The notes below the pieces were generated by a model. It made no database searches. It was not told where the DNA came from and saw nothing but the letters and a program-made list of their open reading frames with translations. DNA of 64,000 nt from Thermodesulfobacteriota bacterium. GTDB taxonomy: Bacteria > Desulfobacterota_D > UBA1144 > Nemesobacterales > JAJCZQ01. Positions 10,226-34,569 of the stretch are shown one piece after another; within the stretch, counting starts at the first letter, position 1, and each line of letters opens with the position of its first letter. The position numbers and the translations under genes were made by a program. The stretch spans positions 1,088,001-1,152,000 of the forward strand of contig OZ244044.1 in assembly GCA_965215275.1 (NCBI GenBank). The letters run 5' to 3'.

Positions 10226-10383
10226 AATATATAAAAGCAGATAAACAGTGTTCAGTCAGCACAAGCCGAATTATTTAATTTGGGAATTATATACAATAGT
10301 GACGAAGCCTCCAATAAATAGTTGACAAACTATAGATTTGTCATTATTACAGGTAAGAAAATTAAATAACTGGAGGAAGTTAT

Positions 10384-11325
10384 ATGTCAAAGAAAGCACC
10401 TGGGAAATCATACAGGAAAGGGATATCGTTAGTAAAGTTATTCAGGAAATTCCCTTCTGATGCTGTTGCAGAGGAATGGTTTGTAAAACAGAGGTGGGGA
10501 AAGGAACCCGTATGTCCGTATTGCGGGACAAGAAACGTTCAGACCGGGACTGGTCATAAGACAATGCCGTACAGGTACAGGGAAAAAGGACGTTCGAAAT
10601 GGTTCAGTGCAAGGAGCAGGACAGTTATGCAGTCTTCTAATATCAGGTATCAGGCTTGGGCAGTGGCAATATATCTTTTTGCCACGTCATTAAAGGGAGT
10701 ATCAAGTATGAAACTGCATAGAGATCTGGATATTACGCATAGGTCAGCATGGCATTTATCGCATCGTATCAGAGAGGCGTGGAACAGAGAAGAACTGCAA
10801 GTGTTTACAGGCTCCGTGGAGGCAGATGAGACGTTTACAGGTGGAAAGGAGAGAAACAAGCATAACAACAGGCGTAGTCATACACGAGGACCTGGAGGGA
10901 AGTCCATTGTTGCAGGAATGAAGAACAGAGAGACAAACAGGGTAACAGCACAACCGGTTTCTGAACGTAGTAAAGAGGAAATACAGGGTTTTACAGTTAA
11001 GAACGCAGGTAGTGGAGTAAAAACATATACCGATGATCATAAAAGCTATACAGGGTTGCCTTATGAGCATGAGAGCGTGGATCATAGTGTAAGGGAGTAC
11101 GTTAAAGAGCAGGCACATGTAAACGGAGTGGGATCGTTCCGGGCAATGTTAAAAAGAGGATATACCGGCACGTACCACAGAATGAGTAAAAAGCATTTAA
11201 ATCGTTATGTAAATGAGTTTTCGGGGAGGCATAATATAAGAAGACTGGACACGGAAGATCAGATGGGAACAACAGCAAGGGCAATGTATGGAAAGACCTT
11301 GCCTTATAAAGAACTGATAAGGTAA
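10384..11325 (+). CDS. IS1595-family DDE transposase, probably inactive
   Basis: CPYC Zn ribbon, KGVSSMKLHRDL, VEADET, YTDD, RYVNEFSGRHN. NGVGS replaces the usual NGIES/NGVES. Confidence 0.9.
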   Translation: MSKKAPGKSYRKGISLVKLFRKFPSDAVAEEWFVKQRWGKEPVCPYCGTRNVQTGTGHKTMPYRYREKGRSKWFSARSRTVMQSSNIRYQAWAVAIYLFATSLKGVSSMKLHRDLDITHRSAWHLSHRIREAWNREELQVFTGSVEADETFTGGKERNKHNNRRSHTRGPGGKSIVAGMKNRETNRVTAQPVSERSKEEIQGFTVKNAGSGVKTYTDDHKSYTGLPYEHESVDHSVREYVKEQAHVNGVGSFRAMLKRGYTGTYHRMSKKHLNRYVNEFSGRHNIRRLDTEDQMGTTARAMYGKTLPYKELIR

Positions 11326-11377
11326 TATGAATAATGTTACAGGATAAAAAACAGACCAAAAAACAAAGAAACTTGCA

Positions 11378-11566
11378 ATGACGAACAGGAAAAAAACAAT
11401 AGAGATCTTGCCAGGCAGTTATGAACCGACAGAAGAAGAGAAAGAGCATCCGTTTTCTATTGATACAACTCCGCAAAAGTCAGCAAAAGCTATCCTCCAG
11501 CCTGTCAACGTTAAAAAGAAGGATGTAAAGAAACACGTTGCTGAACGTTCAAAAAACAGGAAATGA
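11378..11566 (+). CDS. Small passenger ORF inside IS1595 copy 1
   Basis: 62-aa Lys-rich ORF that fills the space between the transposase and the right TIR. Confidence 0.55.
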   Translation: MTNRKKTIEILPGSYEPTEEEKEHPFSIDTTPQKSAKAILQPVNVKKKDVKKHVAERSKNRK

Positions 11567-11708
11567 TCCAGGTTTCGTCACTATTGTATATAATTCCCAT
11601 TTAATTTAACTGTCTCAAATACTTTTATTTTTGATATAACTTACTGAAATAATTTAGTTTTTATTGACAAAATGGTTATTATATAATATACTTTTATACA
11701 TACTAATA

Positions 11709-12185: not shown

Positions 12186-12814
12186 CAAGGGGCATAGTTT
12201 CTGTATTTTTTATGACATTTGCGAAACTCTTTAGACTCTGGATTTTGCAAATGATGTAACAGCATCATAAATCCAACTGAAGTTGCCTCCATTATTATTG
12301 CTGTATATGAACCGTAATCGCCATAACCATCATCGCCGGCGTTTTCTAAACTTAGAGGCTTTGGGTTCCAAAAGCAGGTATATTCTGAAAAGTGTTTTTT
12401 GATACCAACACCAATAGAAAGCGTTTTAATGATTTCTCCTGCTCTGCCAACTTCATTGCACAACTCGCCACAAGTAATACGAGCATCATTGGTATCTGGA
12501 ACATTAATAACAATCTGAGAATCACTTACAGTATCCCTCGCCTTTATAGCTTCTGAAGGAATGTCTGGAGTGTGTCTTTTCAGATGATGGGGTATGATCT
12601 TGATTTCAATTTCTGAGTTAATAAGGTTTGTTAATTTATCTTTTAAAACATAAACTTTATATTTACCAATATCAGTCCGTATGAAATTTCCTCTGTTTAG
12701 GTTGCTTATATCAACTTTATCCCCATCTATAAGAGCTAAATGTTTAGCCCCAGTCCTTACTAACATTTCAGCAAATACACTTCCAACGGCACCGCAACCA
12801 ACAATACAAAATTT
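12182..12814 (-). pseudogene. ThiF/MoeB/E1-like adenylyltransferase, 5'-truncated by IS1595 copy 2
   Basis: IVGCGAVGS, IDGDKVDISNLNR, DIGKYKV. The ORF-track start (12847) lies inside the IS. Confidence 0.75.
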
Positions 12815-12855
12815 GGGAACTATATAGGAAAGTTGACAAAATCCCATAACTCCCT

Positions 12856-13041
12856 TTAATCATTAACTTCTTTTATAAGAGGATTTCCTTTAGGATCTAC
12901 TACTAATTTAAACCTTTTTTTCAGTTCTTCTTTGGTTGGTTTTTTAGGTCGTTTATGCGGGATCGAACCCATTTTTAACAACATCTTTGATGCTTTATCT
13001 ATTGCTTGTTCTTTTTCTTTTTTTGCTTTTAATCTTTTCAT
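12856..13041 (-). CDS. Small basic passenger ORF inside IS1595 copy 2
   Basis: 61-aa Lys-rich ORF between the transposase and the TIR, in the same position as in copy 1. Confidence 0.55.
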   Translation of the reverse strand: MKRLKAKKEKEQAIDKASKMLLKMGSIPHKRPKKPTKEELKKRFKLVVDPKGNPLIKEVND

Positions 13042-13095
13042 TATAAAACAAATAACTATTAAATATGATCAAGACTCCTCCATCATATGTCATCA

Positions 13096-14017
13096 TTACT
13101 GTGTTAACTCTTCAAAGGTTATAGTTTTTCCTGCCATATTTCTAAAAAGTGCATCCAGTTGATCTTGCGTGTCTGTTTTTACATTACCTTCATTTAACCT
13201 GAACGAAAACTCATCTATATATTTCTTAAGATGTTTTTTATTCCAATTGTGATATACACCTTTGTATCCACCCTTTAATACTGCCCAGACACTTTCAACC
13301 CCGTTTGTAGAAGCCATCGTATTTACAAACTCTTTTGCCCAATGATCGACCGTCTTATGCTCAAATTCTCTATCTGATAAACCTCTGTATCCTCTATGCT
13401 CATCTGTGTATATAATGGAACCTTCTGCAATGTTCTCTTTTATCTCTCTTGAAAGAGTTTCACTCTCTCTGTTCCGGATCACTTTTGCTCTGGTTCTGCC
13501 TCCCTTCTCCCTCATACCTGATATACAGACCTTTCCTGCAACTCCTCTGCCTTTATTTCGTTTCTTGCTCCCGTGCTTGTTCTTCTCAAGTCCACCTATG
13601 TATGTCTCGTCTATCTCTACTTCTCCTTTCAATAATACTTCCATATTACTTCCACAAGCAAGTCGCAACCTATGCAGCATATACCAGGCTGTTGTCTGGG
13701 TTACTTCTAACTCCTTGCTCAACTGTAAACTGCTTATTCCCTTTCGGGAAGTCATAAGCAAATATCCTGCAAATATCCACTTCCGCATACTCAAGTGGAG
13801 TGCCTGTTAAAGCAGTAAAATAACTCCGGCATTCCTTACACCAATACCTGCCATATGGTTTCTTCTGTCGTGTTATTTTCTTGCTGCTTCCACACTTTGT
13901 GCAGTTTATTTTCTTTCCCCAGCGTAATCCCTCAAAATACTTAATTACAGATTCTTTTGCAGGATACTTTTCCATTAACCCAAATAAACTGACCGTCTTC
14001 ACATGTCTTTTTTTCAT
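13096..14017 (-). pseudogene. IS1595-family transposase, frameshifted near 13790
   Basis: The N-terminal part (CTKC..YWCKEC Zn ribbon) and the C-terminal part (KGISSLQL, VEIDET, YTDE, NGVES) are in different frames. Confidence 0.9.
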
Positions 14018-14129
14018 ACAATAAATATGATCTTCTATCATCTCTTGTCAACTCTTGTGTCAATATATCCCCTGTTTTGTCAACTTCCCTATATAGTTCC
14101 CTAAGAAAGGAAAGAGAAAGACGTTATAC

Positions 14130-14159
14130 TTGACATTCGTTCATAATACCTGGTAAAAT
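14130..14159 (+). promoter_or_regulatory. Sigma70-type promoter of surface protein paralog 1
   Basis: TTGACA-18 bp-TAAAAT with an extended TG; conserved in paralog 2. Confidence 0.65.
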
Positions 14160-14205
14160 AAAAGAGTTATGAAAAGTTCAAACATAAAAACACGTAGTTC
14201 CATTA

Positions 14206-14286
14206 CCCCCCCCCCCCGTGTATACCTGACCTTTCAGCCTGGTATAAATATTTTGTAAGAACAATGTTTAAGATAATCCCCCCCCC
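14206..14286 (+). repeat. Two poly-C tracts (C12 at 14206-14217, C9 at 14278-14286)
   Basis: Counted directly; homologous tracts occur in paralog 2. Confidence 0.9.
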
Positions 14287-17200
14287 ATCTAAGTTATTAC
14301 TAACCTTAGTCTTTATTCTACTGAGTATCATGGTCATAGCTGCAAAAGGGCAGAGCAGCCTGGAAGAAACATTATCTGAATGCAGAGATATCAGTGCAGG
14401 TCTGGAAGATCCGTTATACGGATGTCAGTGGCATCTGAATAACACTGGACAGTTAAGTATTTCCGGAAAGAGAATAACAGCAGGAGAAGATATTAACGCA
14501 GAGGGAGTATGGAACGAAGAGGTATATGGTACTGGAATTAACGTAGCAGTTGTAAGTAATGGAATAGACCTTTCACATGAGGACCTTTCTGCTAAGGTCC
14601 GTTCGGAACTGAACTACAACTTTTCTGGAAAAGATAATTCAGACAGTTCAGAGTTAAGTGGTACACGAGCGGCAGGAGTAACGGCAGCGGCTGGATATAA
14701 CGGACTGGGAACAAGAGGAGTTGCACCTGGTGCGAGTATATACAGTAATAAGTTAACAGGAGATCTCAGGGAATCAGACGCAATGGAAGCAGGGGAAGCA
14801 ATGGTGCGTAATAAAGAAATAACTGCAGTATCCGTCAGCGACCGGGGATCTGAGGACGGAGTTTTTCTTCAGGGTGCTTCGGCTGAGTGGGAAGAGGGAG
14901 TGGAAGAGGGTATAAGGGAAGGGTTTTACGGCAGGGGAATATTTTACGTCCTGGGAGCAGGGGACGGACATGAGAGCGGAGATCAGGCTAATTTTTCTGA
15001 ATATTCCAATTACTACGGGGTAACAGCGGTGTGTTCAACGGACGGTTCTGGAAAGAAGAGCTTGTTTTCAGAAGAGGGAGTGAATCTGTGGGTATGTGCG
15101 CCTGGTCCTGATATAGCGACCACTGATAGCGACGACGATCACGCCGTGACGTCCGGAACTGTCCTTTCAGTTTCACGGGTCGCAGGTGTGGCGGCACTGC
15201 TGAGAGAGGTAAACGAAGACCTGAGCTGGAGGGATATAAAGCTTATACTTGCGGGTTCGGCACGGCAGAACGACGTTCCTGACATTAGCTGGGAGACTGG
15301 AGCGGTAAAATACGGTTCCGACGTGGAAAGATACAGATACAGTTCGAAATACGGTTTTGGCGTGGTGGACGCGGAGGCGGCCGCAGAGCTTGCCGGAAGC
15401 TGGAAAGGAGTGGGAGAAATGAGGACCGTTACAGCTTCCTCGGATAATGAACTGACGATCCCTGATGGAGAAGGAGAGGCGGACGGGGTCCTTACCTCCA
15501 GACTTATGATTTCGGACCTGGAGGAAATATTTACGGAGTTCGTTGAGGTAGAACTCGTTCTCTCGTGTGACTGCCTGCAGGACCTCAATATACGGATAAC
15601 CTCTCCTTCCGGGACAGTATCGGAACTTGTGCGGGAGTCTGCCAGTGAGTTTGTAAGGGGATCTTCGAATGAAGAAAACGACTGCGTCAGTTACCTGGGG
15701 AAAAAACATCGTTTCGGTTCGGCAAGACACCTCGGGGAAGACCCTTCCGGAGAATGGACCCTTAAGATATATAATACTGCTTCCGGAGATGAAGAAGATA
15801 CAGAAAATACCGTTACCCTGCACTCATGGAGCATCAGGGTATACGGGCACGGGAAGGAAGATACTTTAACGGACTTTGGCGGGGAGATCACTGCCAAGGC
15901 TTTAACTTTGGGTAATGTTCCTGGTGGTAGGCTGACCTGGACGCAACATAAGCTGGTAAACGCAAGGTTATTCGAGGCAGCCGGAGGCAGGCCGCCGTAT
16001 ACTTACAGTTTAGCTCCTTTACCTCCTGGATTGAATTTTAACGGAACCACCAGAATTATAAACGGGAGACCGACCGCTGCAGGTGACACCGACGTTCAGT
16101 ATACGGCAAGAGACGCAAATAACGATACGGCACGGAGTGACTTCGTTATAAGGATAACGGCGAACGCCGCGCCGGTTTTTGGCAGCAAGACGGTTGCTGC
16201 TCAGGTGTACACGGCAAGGAAAGCAATAGAACCATTGGAACTTCCCGAGGCAACGGGAGGGGATGGAACCTTGACTTACAATATAAGTGGTAACGTCAGG
16301 GGTATAGGGTTGAACTTTAACCGTAACACAAGGATACTGAGCGGAATGCCCACCAGTGTTACGCCTGGTATTACAGCCGTTTATACCGCCACTGACGCAG
16401 ATGGAGATACTGCCGAGCTGAGGTTCAATATACGGGTAAGACATCAGAACGACATACCGACCTTCGGCAGTCAGATGGTAGATGATCAGAATTGGGTTAA
16501 CGGCAGTGCGGTAAGGCTAACGCTGCCTCGTGCAAGAAACGGGAATGGAACGTTAACCTACGGTATAACCCCTGCTTTGCCTGATGGACTGGACTTTGAT
16601 CCTGGTACCAGAGTGCTGAGCGGAACACCGACCGCTGCGGCACCTGAGAACACTTACACGTATACGGTAACGGACAGTGATAACGATATTCATGAAAGTG
16701 ATTCTGACAGTCTGACCTTCAGGATAAGAATAAAAGCTGCAACTGAAGTCCCAAGTTTCGGCAGTCAGACGGTAGGTAATAAGATTTATACAGCAGGGGT
16801 TCAAATATCACCATTCACGTTACCTCTTGCAACGCAAGGAACTGGAATTACACTCAGGTTAACCCCTCGTTTACCTTCCGGATTGAATTTTAACCATGCT
16901 ACCGGAGAGATAAGTGGAATACCGACCACTGCAACGTCTGAGACTGATTATACATGGAGAGCAACGGACAGAGACGGATATACGGCTGAGATAACGTTCA
17001 GTATAACGATAAGAGCAGCAGACACGGAACCGACCTTCGGCGGTGAGACGACGGATGATCAGGAATACGTGGCAGGAAGTCAGATAACGCCGGTAACGCT
17101 GCCAGTGGCAACGGGAGGAAATGCTCCGTTAGCCTACGGTATAACCCCTGATCTGCCTGCTGGACTGGACTTTGATGAAAACGCCCGAGTGCTGAGCGGA

Positions 17201-18043
17201 ACACCTACTACTGCAACGAGTAAGAATACCTATACATATACTGTAACGGACGAAGATGGAGACACGGATGAAATTGAGTTCGGTATCACCGTGTCGGAGG
17301 ACACAATGCCGACCTTCGACGGTGAGACGATAGAAGACAAGGTGACCGTTAACGGCGTTACAGAAGTAATGGAAACGCTGCCTCTTGCAACAGGAGGGAA
17401 CGGAACGCTGACTTACAGTTTAACTGATGCCGGTTCAAATGCTTTGAATTTATTTGCCGGACTGGACTGGGATGACAACACCCGGGTGCTGAGCGGAACA
17501 CCCAATATCGGTTCAGCGCTGCTTCATCTGCTTCCTCGAACCGAGACTTACACGTGGACGGTAACGGACGAAGATGGAGATACAGCAGAGATAACGTTCA
17601 GTATAGTAATAGAAGAAGACAGCATGCCGGAATTCAGTGTGACGACGATAGAAGATCAGGTGTACAGGGGGAGATCAATAATGTTGCCGGTAGCAACGGG
17701 AGGGAATGCACCGTTAGTATACAGTATAACGCCTCCCTTACCTCCTGTATTGAGATTGAACGAAAACACCGGGGTAATAAGCGGGACGTCCGTCCGTGCG
17801 TCATCTGCTGCTACTTACAGGTATACGGTAACGGACAGGGACGGAGACATGAAAGAGTTGACCTTCAGGTTCAGTGCAGCGGCTCCGCCACCGACAAGTA
17901 GTAATTCAGGCGGAGGTGGAGGATGTGCTGTATCAGATCAGAGCATCGCCATTTTTGATATTCTCGGAGTAATGGCATGTCTGATACTTATACCCGTGTC
18001 TGTAATTATCAGAAGGAAAAGAAGATCTCAGATAAAGACTTAG
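14264..18043 (+). CDS. Surface protein: degenerate S8 subtilase + proprotein convertase P-domain + ~7 putative Ig (He_PIG-like) repeats + C-terminal sorting signal
   Basis: DPLY..QWHL.N, LSWRDIKLIL, YGFGVVDA, L.I.ITSPSGT, GEDPSGEWTL, repeated LP.GL.FD..TR.LSGTPT and TDxDGD, tail GGGGGCAVS-TM-RRKRR. Confidence 0.85.
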   Translation: MFKIIPPPSKLLLTLVFILLSIMVIAAKGQSSLEETLSECRDISAGLEDPLYGCQWHLNNTGQLSISGKRITAGEDINAEGVWNEEVYGTGINVAVVSNGIDLSHEDLSAKVRSELNYNFSGKDNSDSSELSGTRAAGVTAAAGYNGLGTRGVAPGASIYSNKLTGDLRESDAMEAGEAMVRNKEITAVSVSDRGSEDGVFLQGASAEWEEGVEEGIREGFYGRGIFYVLGAGDGHESGDQANFSEYSNYYGVTAVCSTDGSGKKSLFSEEGVNLWVCAPGPDIATTDSDDDHAVTSGTVLSVSRVAGVAALLREVNEDLSWRDIKLILAGSARQNDVPDISWETGAVKYGSDVERYRYSSKYGFGVVDAEAAAELAGSWKGVGEMRTVTASSDNELTIPDGEGEADGVLTSRLMISDLEEIFTEFVEVELVLSCDCLQDLNIRITSPSGTVSELVRESASEFVRGSSNEENDCVSYLGKKHRFGSARHLGEDPSGEWTLKIYNTASGDEEDTENTVTLHSWSIRVYGHGKEDTLTDFGGEITAKALTLGNVPGGRLTWTQHKLVNARLFEAAGGRPPYTYSLAPLPPGLNFNGTTRIINGRPTAAGDTDVQYTARDANNDTARSDFVIRITANAAPVFGSKTVAAQVYTARKAIEPLELPEATGGDGTLTYNISGNVRGIGLNFNRNTRILSGMPTSVTPGITAVYTATDADGDTAELRFNIRVRHQNDIPTFGSQMVDDQNWVNGSAVRLTLPRARNGNGTLTYGITPALPDGLDFDPGTRVLSGTPTAAAPENTYTYTVTDSDNDIHESDSDSLTFRIRIKAATEVPSFGSQTVGNKIYTAGVQISPFTLPLATQGTGITLRLTPRLPSGLNFNHATGEISGIPTTATSETDYTWRATDRDGYTAEITFSITIRAADTEPTFGGETTDDQEYVAGSQITPVTLPVATGGNAPLAYGITPDLPAGLDFDENARVLSGTPTTATSKNTYTYTVTDEDGDTDEIEFGITVSEDTMPTFDGETIEDKVTVNGVTEVMETLPLATGGNGTLTYSLTDAGSNALNLFAGLDWDDNTRVLSGTPNIGSALLHLLPRTETYTWTVTDEDGDTAEITFSIVIEEDSMPEFSVTTIEDQVYRGRSIMLPVATGGNAPLVYSITPPLPPVLRLNENTGVISGTSVRASSAATYRYTVTDRDGDMKELTFRFSAAAPPPTSSNSGGGGGCAVSDQSIAIFDILGVMACLILIPVSVIIRRKRRSQIKT

Positions 18044-30389: not shown

Positions 30390-30418
30390 TTGACATCCGT
30401 TCATAATACGAGTAAAAT
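30390..30418 (+). promoter_or_regulatory. Sigma70-type promoter of surface protein paralog 2
   Basis: TTGACA-17 bp-TAAAAT. Confidence 0.65.
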
Positions 30419-30464
30419 ATCAATGTTATGAAAAATCCAAACATAAAAACACGTAGTTCCATTA

Positions 30465-30545
30465 CCCCCCCCCCCGTGTATACCTGAACTTTCAGTCTGG
30501 TATAAGTATTTTGTAAGAACAATGTTTAAGATAATACCCCCCCCC
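30465..30545 (+). repeat. Two poly-C tracts (C11 at 30465-30475, C9 at 30537-30545)
   Basis: Counted directly. Confidence 0.9.
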
Positions 30546-33500
30546 ATCTAAGTCATTACTAACGTTAGTCTTATTTCTTCTGATTATTATGGTCATAGCT
30601 GCAAAAGGGCAGAGCAGTCTGGAAGAAACATTATCTGAATGCAGAGGTATGAGTTCAGACACGGAAGATCCGTTATACGGATGTCAGTGGCATCTGAAAA
30701 ACACGGGGCAGTTTGGTTTTTCCGGAAAGAGAATAACAGCAGGAGAAGATATAAACATAGAGGGAGTGTGGAACGAAGACGTATACGGTACCGGAATTAA
30801 CATAGCAATAGTAAGTAACGGCATTGACCTTTCACATGAGGACCTTTCTGCTAAGGTCCGTTCCGGACTGAACTATGATCTGTCTGACAGTTCATCTTTT
30901 AGTGGAACACGAGCGGCAGGTGTAATAGCAGCAACTGGATATAACGGACTGGGAGTAAGAGGAACAGCACCTGGTGCGAGTATATACAGTTACAGGTTAT
31001 CCGGTGATCTCAGTGAAGCGGACGCGGTGGTCCGTAATAAGGAAATAACTGCAGTATTGGTTAACGGCCGGGGATATGAGGAAGGAGCTTTTTTTCAGGA
31101 GGCTTTGGCTGAGTGGGAAGAAGGAGTGGAACTTGGAATAAGAGAAGGGTTTTATGGTAAAGGTGTGTTTTACGTCCGGGGAGCAGGGGACGGTCATGAG
31201 AATAACGATCAGGCTAATTTTTCTGAATATTCAAACTATTACGGAGTAACGGCTGTGTGTTCAACGGACGGTTCTGGAAAGAAGAGTTTATTTTCAGAAG
31301 AGGGAGTAAATCTATGGGTATGTGCACCTGGTTCTGATATTGTGACCACAGATAATAACGACGGCTACGTTGTAACTTCCGGAACATTTCTATCAGCTTC
31401 ACAGGTTGGAGGAGTGGCAGCACTGCTGAGAGAGATAAATGGACAGCTGAGCTGGAGGGATATAAAGCTTATACTTGCGGGTTCAGCACGGCAGAACGAT
31501 TTTTTTGATATGAGCTGGGAGACTGGAGCTGTTAAATACGGTTCTGATACGGAAAGATATAAATATAATCCTAAGTATGGTTTTGGCGTGGTAGACGCAG
31601 AAGCAGCTGCAGAACTTGCAAAAAGCTGGAAAGGCGTTGGAGAGATGAGGACCATTACAGCTTCTTCAGATAATGAACTGACAATTCCTGATGGAGAAGG
31701 AGAAGCAGACGGGGTCCTTGTTTCCAGACTTATGATCCCGGACCTGGAGGAAATATTTACGGAATTCGTTGAGGTAGAACTTGTTTTCTCTCATGACCGC
31801 TTACAGGACCTTGATATAAAAATAACCTCTCCTTCCGGGACAGTATCTGAACTTGTAAGGGAGTTTTCAGGGGAAGCGGAAGACGCTGATATCAGTTACC
31901 TGAGAAGAACACATCGTTTCGGGTCGGCAAAGCACCTCGGAGAAGACCCTTCCGGAGAATGAATCCTTAAAATATCCGATACTGCTTCCGGAGATGAAGA
32001 AGCAGAAGATGGAGAAGAAGTGGGGACCTTACACTCATGGAGCATTAAGGTATACGGGAATTTTTATCAGGGACATGGCAGTGAGATCACTACTAAAGCT
32101 ATAAGTCTGCCTTTTATTGCTAATAAGGAATACACACAAAATACTTCAGTAGAAGACACGTATCCTGAAGCAACGGGAGATAATCCGCCTTATACTTATA
32201 GATTTGTTCGCGGTACATTACCAGATGGACTAAGCTTTGATCCTGACACCCGGGTGCTGAGCGGAACACCAACTACTGTAGGTAGGAAAACTGCTCAATA
32301 TTTAGCAGAAGACGCAAGTGGAGATATAGCAAGGAGGACCTTCTTTATAACTATAACAGCAGGACCGCCAACCTTTTCAGGAGCAACGGTCCCTGAACAG
32401 ATATGGACGGAAGGGGTAAGGATACCAACATTACGTTTTCCTAATGCAACGGGAGGTAACGGAACTTTAACATACTTTTTAAGTCCTGCGCAGCCAGTTG
32501 GTATCAGCAGACAGGACAACAGGTTATTCGGAACACCTACGGAACCTCAAAGAAGATCTCTTTATACATGGACAGTCAGAGACAAAGATAATGATGAGGA
32601 TATTATTGAGTTCTATATTACTGTAAGAGAGAACGTCCCTACCTTCGGAGGTCAGACCATACCTCAGCAGAATTATATAGTAGGCAGAACAATACAAAGA
32701 TTAGTATTTCCTCGTGCAACGGGAGAGGAACCGTTAACTTACAATTTAGAAGGAGGTCCGACTAATTTACCAGGTGGATTGAACTTAGTAAGTAATCCAA
32801 CAAGTATAATAGGAACACCAACTACAACGGCGGACATTAATTACAGATGGACAGTTACGGACAAAGATGGAGATAAGACAGAACTTCCGTTCAGGATGAA
32901 GATAAGGTCTGCATCTGAAGTACCGGACTTCGGCAGTGAGACGGTAGAAGATCAGGTGTGGGGTAACGGCAGAGCAGTAACGTTAACTCTGCCTCAGGCA
33001 ACTGGAGGGAATGGAACTTTAAATTACAGTTTAAGCGGTGTTATACCAAATGGACTTACTTTTAACCAAAACACCAGAACGTTAAGTGGAACGCTCAACA
33101 TTGTTGATACAAGTATATTACCTGTAACTGGAACTTATACCTGGAAGGTAACTGACTCTGACTCAGATGATGACGGTGATTCTGACAGTATTACCTTCTC
33201 TATTACTATAGAAACTGATTCAGAGCCGAGCTTCGGAGGTCAGACCATCCCAAATCAGACATATATTGAAAGGACAACCTTCGGTCTTCCAGTAACGCTG
33301 CCTGAAGCAGTTACAAATACAGGGAATGGGACTTTAATTTACAGTTTAAACCGTAGTTTACCTAGTGGTTTGAGCTTTGATCCTGCTACCAGAGTGATAA
33401 GTGGAACTCCAACTCATAGGCAACCTATTTTTTCAACTTATACATATAGGGTAAGAGATAATGATGGAGATACGGCTAATCTGAGTTTCCGCCTGCAAAT

Positions 33501-34569
33501 AATCGGTAACACCCGGCCAAGCTTTCATAATACGATAACAGATAAGGTGTATTATACGTTTACAGCAGTAACGGAAACGTTACCTGAGGCAGCACAAAAT
33601 AATAATCCACCTTCAACTTACAGTTTAACTCCTGCATTACCTGATGGACTGATCTTTACCCCTGCTACCAGAGAGATAACAGGAACACCAACTGCTGCAA
33701 TGTCTGAGACTGATTACACGTATACGGTTGCTGATCTAAATGGAGATACGGACGAGTTAACATTCAGTATCACTGTATTGGCAGTAGCAGACACGGAACC
33801 GACCTTCGGCAGTGAAACTATAGATAACAAGGTATATATAAACTACGGAGAAGCAGTAACGGAAACACTGCCTGAAGCAACGTCAGGGAATGCACCATTA
33901 ACTTACAGTTTAAAGAGGGACCATTTTGGTAGTTTCACTACTGCTTTATTTAAGGGATTGACATTTACTGCAAACACCAGAGAGTTAAGCGGAACACCCA
34001 ATCTTGATATTCATCCAAGTCTATTTCCTGTAACTGCTACTCATACATATAAAGTAAGAGACAATGATGGAGATACAGCAGAGATAATGTTCAGTATAAC
34101 AATAGAAGAAGACAGCGAACCGGACTTCAGCGGTGTGACAATACCAGATCGTGTGTACACGGGGAGAACAATAGAGCTGCCAGAGGCAGCGGGAGGGAAT
34201 TTACCAGTTACTTACAGTATAACACCTGATCTGCCAGCTGGATTGAGATTTAACGAAGTAACGCGGGAAATAAGTGGGACACCCAGGAGTGCATCAACAA
34301 GAACTTACACGTATACGGTAACGGACAGCAATGGAGATACGGATGATGCGACTTTCATGCTCAGTGTAGAGGTTACTTCTACTCCAGGACCAACACCACC
34401 ACGAGGACCAAGAACGTCAGGTACTGATTCAGGCGGAGGTGGAGGAGGATGTGCTGTATCAGAGCAGAGCAGCGTTGATGAAGATATTCTCGGAGTAATG
34501 ACATGTCTGATACTTATACCTGTGTCAGTAACGATAAGAAGAAAGAGAAGAGCTCAGGTAAAGACTTAG
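30522..34569 (+). pseudogene. Surface protein paralog 2 (degenerate S8 + P-domain + ~8 Ig-like repeats + sorting signal), out of frame at poly-C and with an internal TGA
   Basis: ORFs 30589-31962 and 32020-34569 are in the same frame, separated by TGA where paralog 1 has TGG. ATG 30522 stops just after the C9 tract. Confidence 0.85.

Follow-up and report, generated by a model that had tools for sequence, protein, structure and literature searches.

Several described systems of repeat-driven phase variation bear on the locus reported here. In Neisseria, the opa and pilC genes carry repeats in the region encoding the signal peptide, and NalP is a subtilisin-like protease; at licA of Haemophilus, alternative starts give graded output. 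To our knowledge, the Neisseria opa/pilC and NalP/MspA systems have one switch per gene. The accessible part of one report places C tracts in both nalP and mspA (PMC7371114), and excerpts of another describe several start codons upstream of the CAAT repeats of licA (lic1) (PMC2992063). For Campylobacter jejuni NCTC11168, the available text of one paper gives 303, 18, 0 and 4 runs of G5, G6, G7 and G8, with a mode at 9, and counts 11-29 tracts in C. jejuni genomes (PMC3401435); the gap at 7 is attributed, in the accessible passages, to an insertion bias in short tracts and a deletion bias in long ones (PMC3401435, PMC8355987). Two homopolymeric tracts within a single ORF are described, in the portion available to us, for Helicobacter pylori JHP1272 / HP1353-54, where the first tract acts as an on/off switch and the second alters the specificity of a restriction-modification enzyme, the shorter product being active (PMC3936762). 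Homopolymer phase variation has also been hypothesised, in the excerpt available, for the Cpn1054 paralogs of Chlamydia pneumoniae (PMC4514472).

The window that we analyzed is a stretch of 64,000 nucleotides of a 1.99-Mb single-contig genome (hereafter G000). A preliminary description had reported serial poly-C tracts at a gene termed paralog 1, with a C12 tract that follows an ATG at 14169 and leads to a TAA stop, and a C9 tract that is in frame; all of these coordinates hold. The features of this gene and of a second copy, paralog 2, are listed below.

14130..14159, + strand: P1, near-consensus sigma70-type promoter (TTGACA 14130-35, 18 nt, TAAAAT 14154-59)
14169..14205, + strand: ATG1 with a leader of 12 codons that stays open as far as tract 1; the ATG follows the P1 -10 box by 9 nt and has no Shine-Dalgarno (SD) sequence
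14206..14217, + strand: tract 1, C12, at present in frame B, that is, out of frame with ATG2
14218..14263, + strand: inter-tract segment, 46 nt, open in the ATG2 frame only; homolog of a promoter cassette
14226..14254, + strand: P2, decayed promoter-like element (CTGACC, 17 nt, TATTTT; 8/12 matches), 9 nt before ATG2
14227..14229, + strand: frame-C stop TGA, 34 nt before ATG2
14256..14258, + strand: frame-B stop TAA, 5 nt before ATG2, reached at the present C12
14264..14277, + strand: start codon ATG2 and the opening codons of the predicted signal peptide; ATG invariant in 28/28 copies
14278..14286, + strand: tract 2, C9, in frame, preceding the hydrophobic core of the predicted signal peptide
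14264..18043, + strand: predicted surface protein, 1259 aa, ORF in frame with tract 2
30390..30545, + strand: paralog 2 leader, with P1, ATG1 at 30428, C11 at 30465-75 (frame C), P2-like element at 30484-30512, ATG2 at 30522 and C9 at 30537-45
30522..34569, + strand: coding region of paralog 2, with an in-frame TGA at 31960-62 that breaks it

P1 of paralog 1 matches the consensus at 11 of 12 positions and has an extended -10 TG, and both tracts (C12 and C9) fall within the first 40 codons from ATG1. In-silico phasing bears out the earlier claim that a C10 or C13 tract 1 reads on into the main ORF, provided that tract 2 is C9; a tract 1 of C9 or C12 leads to the stop at TAA 14256-58, and one of C11 to the stop at TGA 14227-29. 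Paralog 2 has the same layout (C11 and C9), but its tract 2 is out of frame. We interpret this arrangement as two stacked promoter-ATG-poly-C cassettes, placed before a predicted surface protein, that would form a two-tier slippage switch, with tract 2 as its master and tract 1 as a gate on the level of expression. On balance, we consider this interpretation to be probable.

The window contains 13 C8 matches where 1.44 are expected, and 0 of 100 shuffles reached 13. Throughout the genome, C/G runs number 787 at 5 nt, 78 at 6, 0 at 7, 6 at 8, 68 at 9 and 32 at 10; 139 runs are at least 8 nt long, with a mode of 9, and the A/T runs of the same genome fall off smoothly with length. This over-representation and bimodal profile, together with a G/C run of at least 8 in the 5' coding region of paralog 1 whose length sets the reading frame, are consistent with the slippage-type contingency locus that had been proposed. 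Loss of mismatch repair is ruled out by the presence of mutS and mutL in the genome, and because both genes are present, switching may be slower than in Campylobacter.

We also compared the tracts with assembled contigs of public runs, one of which is possibly the assembly's own source. Homopolymers are error-prone in sequencing, and errors of this kind could produce apparent frameshifts in an assembly. We consider this explanation extremely improbable, however: the public-run contigs span C8, C9, C11 and C12 tracts with zero gaps relative to the assembly, the A/T runs show no matching anomaly, and an error of +/-1 would not create a two-tract architecture. Length variation was compared over G000 1486300-1505700, apart from the tract pair 1486513/1486584. 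The unique tract 1 at G000 1505400 is C12 in run X2 (depth 110, no gaps) and C11 in run X5, which comes from another study (5.7 of 5.7); run X1 also gives C11, with a contig break at the edge of the tract and a drop in depth from 575 to 235. A C11 would bring this tract into frame, and the difference between C12 and C11 is a suggestive sign of tract-length change. The tracts at 1490289 (C9), 1494501 (C8) and 1505474 (C11) kept their length in both X1 and X2, as did the C8 tract in X5. Contig variants at paralog 1 (C9, C10, C11 or C13 at tract 1, and +1 or +2 at tract 2) were rejected as evidence of switching, because the flanks of its tracts are common to other paralogs over 40+30 and 29+8 nt.

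The double-tract layout had been noted in two copies. It extends to 28 copies in the genome, including paralog 1, all within a 57-member subtilase/Ig-repeat family in which 28 members have two tracts and 21 have one (within 900 nt). The stop-free register reported for paralog 2 is likewise general, the ATG2 frame being open back to tract 1 in 28/28 copies. Tract 1 is in frame in 8/28 copies and tract 2 in 5/28; these fractions do not depart significantly from one third and are mutually independent, and a single copy (G000 1028883) has both tracts in frame. In three single-tract copies (G000 421717, 652456 and 633539, the last of which is broken further down the gene), an ATG1-type leader is joined straight to the sequence that follows tract 2, so that ATG1 or GTG1 is the sole start before the signal core. 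In the family tree, one of them (652456) is nested within two-tract copies.

Are the tracts simply mutational scars in a family that is being pseudogenised in a host-restricted genome? The internal stop in paralog 2, the truncation of a few family members and the fact that most copies are out of frame all point in this direction. However, an open frame of 815-1377 codons past tract 2 is kept in 27/28 double-tract genes, the tracts are concentrated at 5' ends, downstream of strong promoters, and the lack of 7-mers combined with a mode of 9 fits maintained hypermutable tracts. We therefore regard decay as very improbable.

The paralog 1 protein has a predicted signal peptide, an S8 subtilase domain, a P-domain and He_PIG repeats, and its C-terminus consists of a Gly-rich/Cys stretch followed by a hydrophobic stretch and a basic tail. 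The motif-hydrophobic-basic layout of this tail resembles CTERM signals without membership, the scores being 15.2 bits for Synergist_CTERM (cut-off 22.5) and 9.9 for JDVT-CTERM (cut-off 27). Comparison with kexin showed that all three residues of the Asp-His-Ser catalytic triad are replaced in paralog 1, which thus does not qualify as an active S8 protease; across the 57 members, Asp is kept in 24, His in 8 and Ser in 17. We infer that the family consists of surface-displayed, largely non-catalytic proteins. A search of 30 related genomes gave no close relative of the S8 domain, and its relatives in metagenome and genome scans are only 25-43% identical; proteins that are 50-73% identical were found in other assemblies. 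At five metagenome loci, the 330 nt upstream of the match are coding-like and contain no leader (17 genome loci were left out of this comparison). A scan of viral contigs for the inter-tract pattern gave no match, and a search of other assemblies for the extended leader peptide recovered only this genome's own both-in-frame copy (1/7 candidates). The paired-tract pattern matches 5/100 other genomes of the order, the matches listed being mostly low-complexity runs, with a follow-up that left out G007 C2, G013, G064 and G084.

In all 28 double-tract loci, P1 agrees with the consensus at 10-11 of 12 positions and is followed, exactly 9 nt past its -10 box, by an ATG whose leader is open to tract 1. 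Leader lengths are 28, 37, 43, 49 or 55 nt in 24/28 copies, and these differ by multiples of 3; the remaining four leaders measure 17, 39, 41 and 51 nt. Neither ATG has an SD sequence, the SD energy being -0.4 kcal/mol at ATG2 and -2.9 at ATG1, compared with -4.2 to -8.9 for seven genes of the window. The pattern of a promoter, 9-10 nt and an ATG occurs 58 times in G000 versus 3 times for a reversed control, and a stricter genome scan found such spacing almost only at poly-C genes (38 vs 1). Among 19 matches to the pattern in four relatives (G001-G004), we translated 15: eight open proteins of at least 84 aa, among them those of ClpP-like genes in three of the relatives and of acylphosphatase-like genes in three; the other seven stop within 13 codons. 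One of seven further matches in G000 opens a ClpP-like gene. The geometry of a -10 box, 9 nt and an ATG is therefore found at what we take to be a ClpP-like gene in G000, G001, G003 and G004, and at a presumed acylphosphatase-like gene in G002-G004. A stop-avoidance test lacked power when applied to the ATG1 leader (P 0.68). From the spacing, the missing SD sequence and the occurrence of this geometry at other genes, it is likely that ATG1 is a real leaderless-type start.

The geometry seen at ATG1 recurs in the inter-tract segment: a -35-like box, a 17-nt spacer, a -10-like box and, after 9 nt, an ATG. P2 was not called by the consensus scanner, and its matches range from 6 to 10 of 12 across copies, as against 10-11 for P1; its boxes are near-intact in two copies, as TTGACC/TACAAT (G000 206495) and TTGACC/CACAAT. 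We aligned 8 of the 28 inter-tract segments to the regions upstream of 111 other tracts. The best matches were the leaders of methyltransferase-like single-tract genes (384592, 496990 and 899122) or P1 promoters, and the least-decayed copies scored 48 and 44, compared with background maxima of 42 and 40 in 4000 AT-rich 75-mers. The segment of paralog 1 alone scored 31, which is reached by 0.4% of the background and is not significant as the best of 111; it aligns with the least-decayed, high-scoring copies. Judged by these alignments, the inter-tract segment is a decayed promoter+ATG cassette, homologous to the leaders of single-tract genes, and this would account for the lack of an SD sequence at ATG2. 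This second promoter-like cassette was absent from the preliminary description. The double leader at G000 1486277 has, upstream of it, a third cassette that is likewise decayed.

All 28 copies retain ATG2, and in the P2 -10 box T1 is kept in 27/28, A2 in 23/28 and T6 in 28/28. Given that ATG2 is invariant, it is likely still in use. The preliminary description had remarked that ATG 14264 lacks a clear SD, which is correct, and had allowed for its independent initiation as an exception; with -35- and -10-like boxes of its own and complete conservation, such initiation is probably the case. In 27/28 copies, no more than 5 nt separate the first frame-B stop from ATG2, and re-initiation at ATG2 after this stop is plausible. 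Since stop-like triplets are also seen just 5' of the ATG in single methyltransferase cassettes, the position of the frame-B stop may be inherited rather than selected.

Frame A, in which ATG1 would read through, is stop-free in all copies despite 101 parsimony substitutions (neutral simulation, P 0.017-0.021) and 51 distinct variants (P 0.009), although both P values are approximate because gene conversion among paralogs inflates the counts. Of the inter-tract changes, 20 are synonymous and 81 non-synonymous, with about 23% synonymous expected, which rules out selection on the sequence of the inter-tract peptide. Most copies can fold a weak hairpin immediately downstream of tract 1; a role for it as a frameshift stimulator found no support (z about 0 in paralog 1 and -0.4 on average, with 8/28 below -1), and its covariation, analyzed on 9/28 copies, gave no signal beyond shuffles (149/500).

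These observations can be read in a simpler way, with ATG2 as the real start and tract 2 as the only coding switch. Tract 1, which lies inside the P1 5' UTR and 8 nt upstream of the P2 -35 box, would then tune expression at the DNA or RNA level or be a leftover of cassette duplication. Such a reading is consistent with the normal-length predicted signal peptide that starts at ATG2, with the lack of amino-acid constraint between the tracts and with the possible hairpin; in addition, the accessible text on Haemophilus influenzae hmw1A indicates that 5' UTR repeats can act post-transcriptionally (PMC12721329). However, it leaves unexplained why frame A avoids stops (P about 0.01-0.02) and why ATG1 is fixed at +9 in 28/28 copies, it does not fit the copies without any ATG2, which depend on an ATG1-type leader, and the hairpin shows no covariation beyond that of shuffles. 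We regard it as rather improbable.

The preliminary description had proposed AND logic, in which both tracts must be in frame. For a protein started at ATG1 this part stands. Both frames other than that of ATG2 are closed before tract 2 in 28/28 copies, so that the tracts cannot compensate each other, and an ATG1 product would need both in frame. As the whole story, AND logic would require that P2 is dead and ATG2 merely an internal Met, that protein production is limited to the states with both tracts in frame (about 1/9) and that paralog 1 is off now. The stronger consensus of P1 (10-11/12 matches, versus 6-10 for P2), the lack of an SD at ATG2 and the closure of the other frames speak for this view, and P2 could be occluded by transcription that starts at a strong promoter upstream of it. 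On the other hand, ATG2 and key bases of the P2 -10 box are fixed while the adjacent codons drift neutrally, two copies have near-intact P2 boxes, and the frame-B stop is within re-initiation distance in 27/28. The ATG2 route is thus probable, and strict AND logic appears unlikely, though less so than the other alternatives considered here.

We therefore return to the two-tier switch. Because both start codons precede tract 2, the gain or loss of one base there cuts every product, as follows directly from the sequence. With tract 1 in frame A, translation from ATG1 behind the strong P1 would read into the gene and yield an N-terminally extended signal peptide. In frame B, the present state, it would meet the stop 5 nt before ATG2, and in frame C the stop 34 nt before it; these frames are evident from the sequence, and initiation at ATG1 is what we presume. 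ATG2 would then provide a lower output, through leaderless transcripts from the decayed P2, through re-initiation after the frame-B stop, or both. The gene would be off when tract 2 is out of frame, low when tract 2 is in and tract 1 out, and high when both are in. At present, paralog 1 would be in the low state; paralog 2 would be off, and its TGA at 31960-62 breaks it in addition. With 28 such copies, full expression would be kept rare, and a cell would display few of its many paralogs at once.

More tentatively, we suggest a broader scheme, which we consider possible but doubtful in its full form. A portable cassette of promoter, leaderless ATG and poly-C tract, common to methyltransferase and surface-protein genes, may have been stacked in the 28 paralogs as a switch with several levels (off, low from P2, medium from re-initiation and high from read-through). 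Recombination between C runs would collapse it to one step, and the rarity of display would in this way be under evolvable control.

Homopolymer phase variation normally provides one switch per gene, so that each gene is on in about one third of its states, and dozens of paralogs with single switches would mean that many are expressed together. Two stacked switches lower the full-on fraction (1/28 here) without a regulator or a recombinase, which would offer a multigene surface family a simple route towards one-at-a-time display. Because one-tract, two-tract and collapsed forms coexist in this genome, the birth and loss of the second switch are open to direct study, and the leader is small enough for reporter testing. 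With this locus, the biology of contingency loci on a large scale is also extended to an uncultured lineage.

Switching by homopolymers is itself known; the stacked form appears to be new. In the literature that we covered, including PMC11868660, PMC8355987, PMC5084427, PMC2806470 and PMC3025981 (mostly non-subscription text, without supplements and excluding the primary paper on Cpn1054), we found no two leader tracts that each have their own promoter and start. The Cpn1054 paralogs, compared here through a one-sentence description, resemble the present genes as a paralogous family with proposed homopolymer switching. As far as the available text shows, the poly-G/C loci of C. jejuni are similar in their intragenic G/C homopolymers, gap at 7, mode of 9, many loci and ON/OFF control by frame; they differ in number (11-29 tracts, versus 139 here), and the present genome has 28 genes with two serial tracts, a start codon before each, and retains mutS/mutL. 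Neisseria opa, pilC and NalP/MspA are likewise multi-copy surface-protein genes that switch independently, and the present genes differ from them in their two cassettes, probable leaderless-type starts and number (57 paralogs), and in a subtilase domain without the triad in paralog 1. The licA gene shares the combination of alternative starts with a repeat tract; in the part of its description available to us, it has one tract and starts in different frames, in contrast to the two tracts and two starts, parted by the first tract, seen here. JHP1272, according to the accessible text, shares two serial tracts in one reading frame. Unlike in JHP1272, however, both tracts here fall within the first 40 codons, before the signal-peptide core, and the second has a promoter-like element and an ATG of its own.

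Poly-C tracts in the source genome (G000) are also found in genes other than those of the surface-protein family. Two sets were found, one of DNA-methyltransferase-like genes, which also includes genes from a relative in the same genus (G001), and one forming a second paralog family:

G000 384592, 496990, 828763, 899122 (minus strand), 1401695, 1814702 (minus), 734762 (minus), 834720, 1001504 and 1490289: DNA-methyltransferase-like genes, poly-C right behind the start
G001 loci L089 and L112: DNA-methyltransferase-like genes, poly-C right behind the start
G000 19539, 20737, 31554 (minus), 1069001 (minus), 1899949, 1901573, 1914739 (minus) and 1964984: repeat-protein-like paralogs, internal poly-C run at a position common to the members

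The genes of the first set, which we take to be DNA-methyltransferase-like from a DPPF-type motif, possibly constitute a phasevarion-like set. Five of them share the cassette of promoter, 9 nt and ATG, and several are degenerate. In G000, 109 of the 139 long C/G runs have C on the plus strand, along the entire contig, and most surface-protein family genes are oriented in the same way. A decayed third promoter and ATG cassette was also observed 5' of one double-tract leader (G000 1486277-1486600).

Upstream of paralog 1, the window contains two neighbouring elements:

12812-14104: IS1595-family element; its ends are terminal inverted repeats of 30 bp with 93% complementarity
10281-11599: second element with terminal inverted repeats

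The transposase of the IS1595-family element is split over two minus-strand frames (13670-14041 and 13096-13794), and the P1 -35 box of paralog 1 begins 25 nt past the end of the element. A possible hairpin lies directly 3' of tract 1 (14218-14246), in the same register in the paralogs; it is strong in a few copies (to -15 kcal/mol) and weak in paralog 1, and no covariation support was found for it in the 9 of 28 copies compared. Paralog 2 is broken by an in-frame TGA (31960-31962), where paralog 1 has Trp, and 849 codons remain open downstream.

Among named relatives, those closest to the subtilase domain (L032-L042, about 40% identity) occur in Dehalococcoidia and Acidimicrobiales assemblies, which hints at a horizontal origin of this domain. 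In G064, from the same order, near-identical C-tract pairs about 70 nt apart were found at C2 350953 and 521794, with a spacer unlike that of G000. In G001, G9-G10 runs lie between TTGACA and a TAAAAT, TAGAAT or TAGGAT box at L091, L093 and L099, preceding secreted He_PIG-type genes. This arrangement is a promoter-spacer switch; the same kind of protein is reached by a different route from that of the poly-C leaders of G000.
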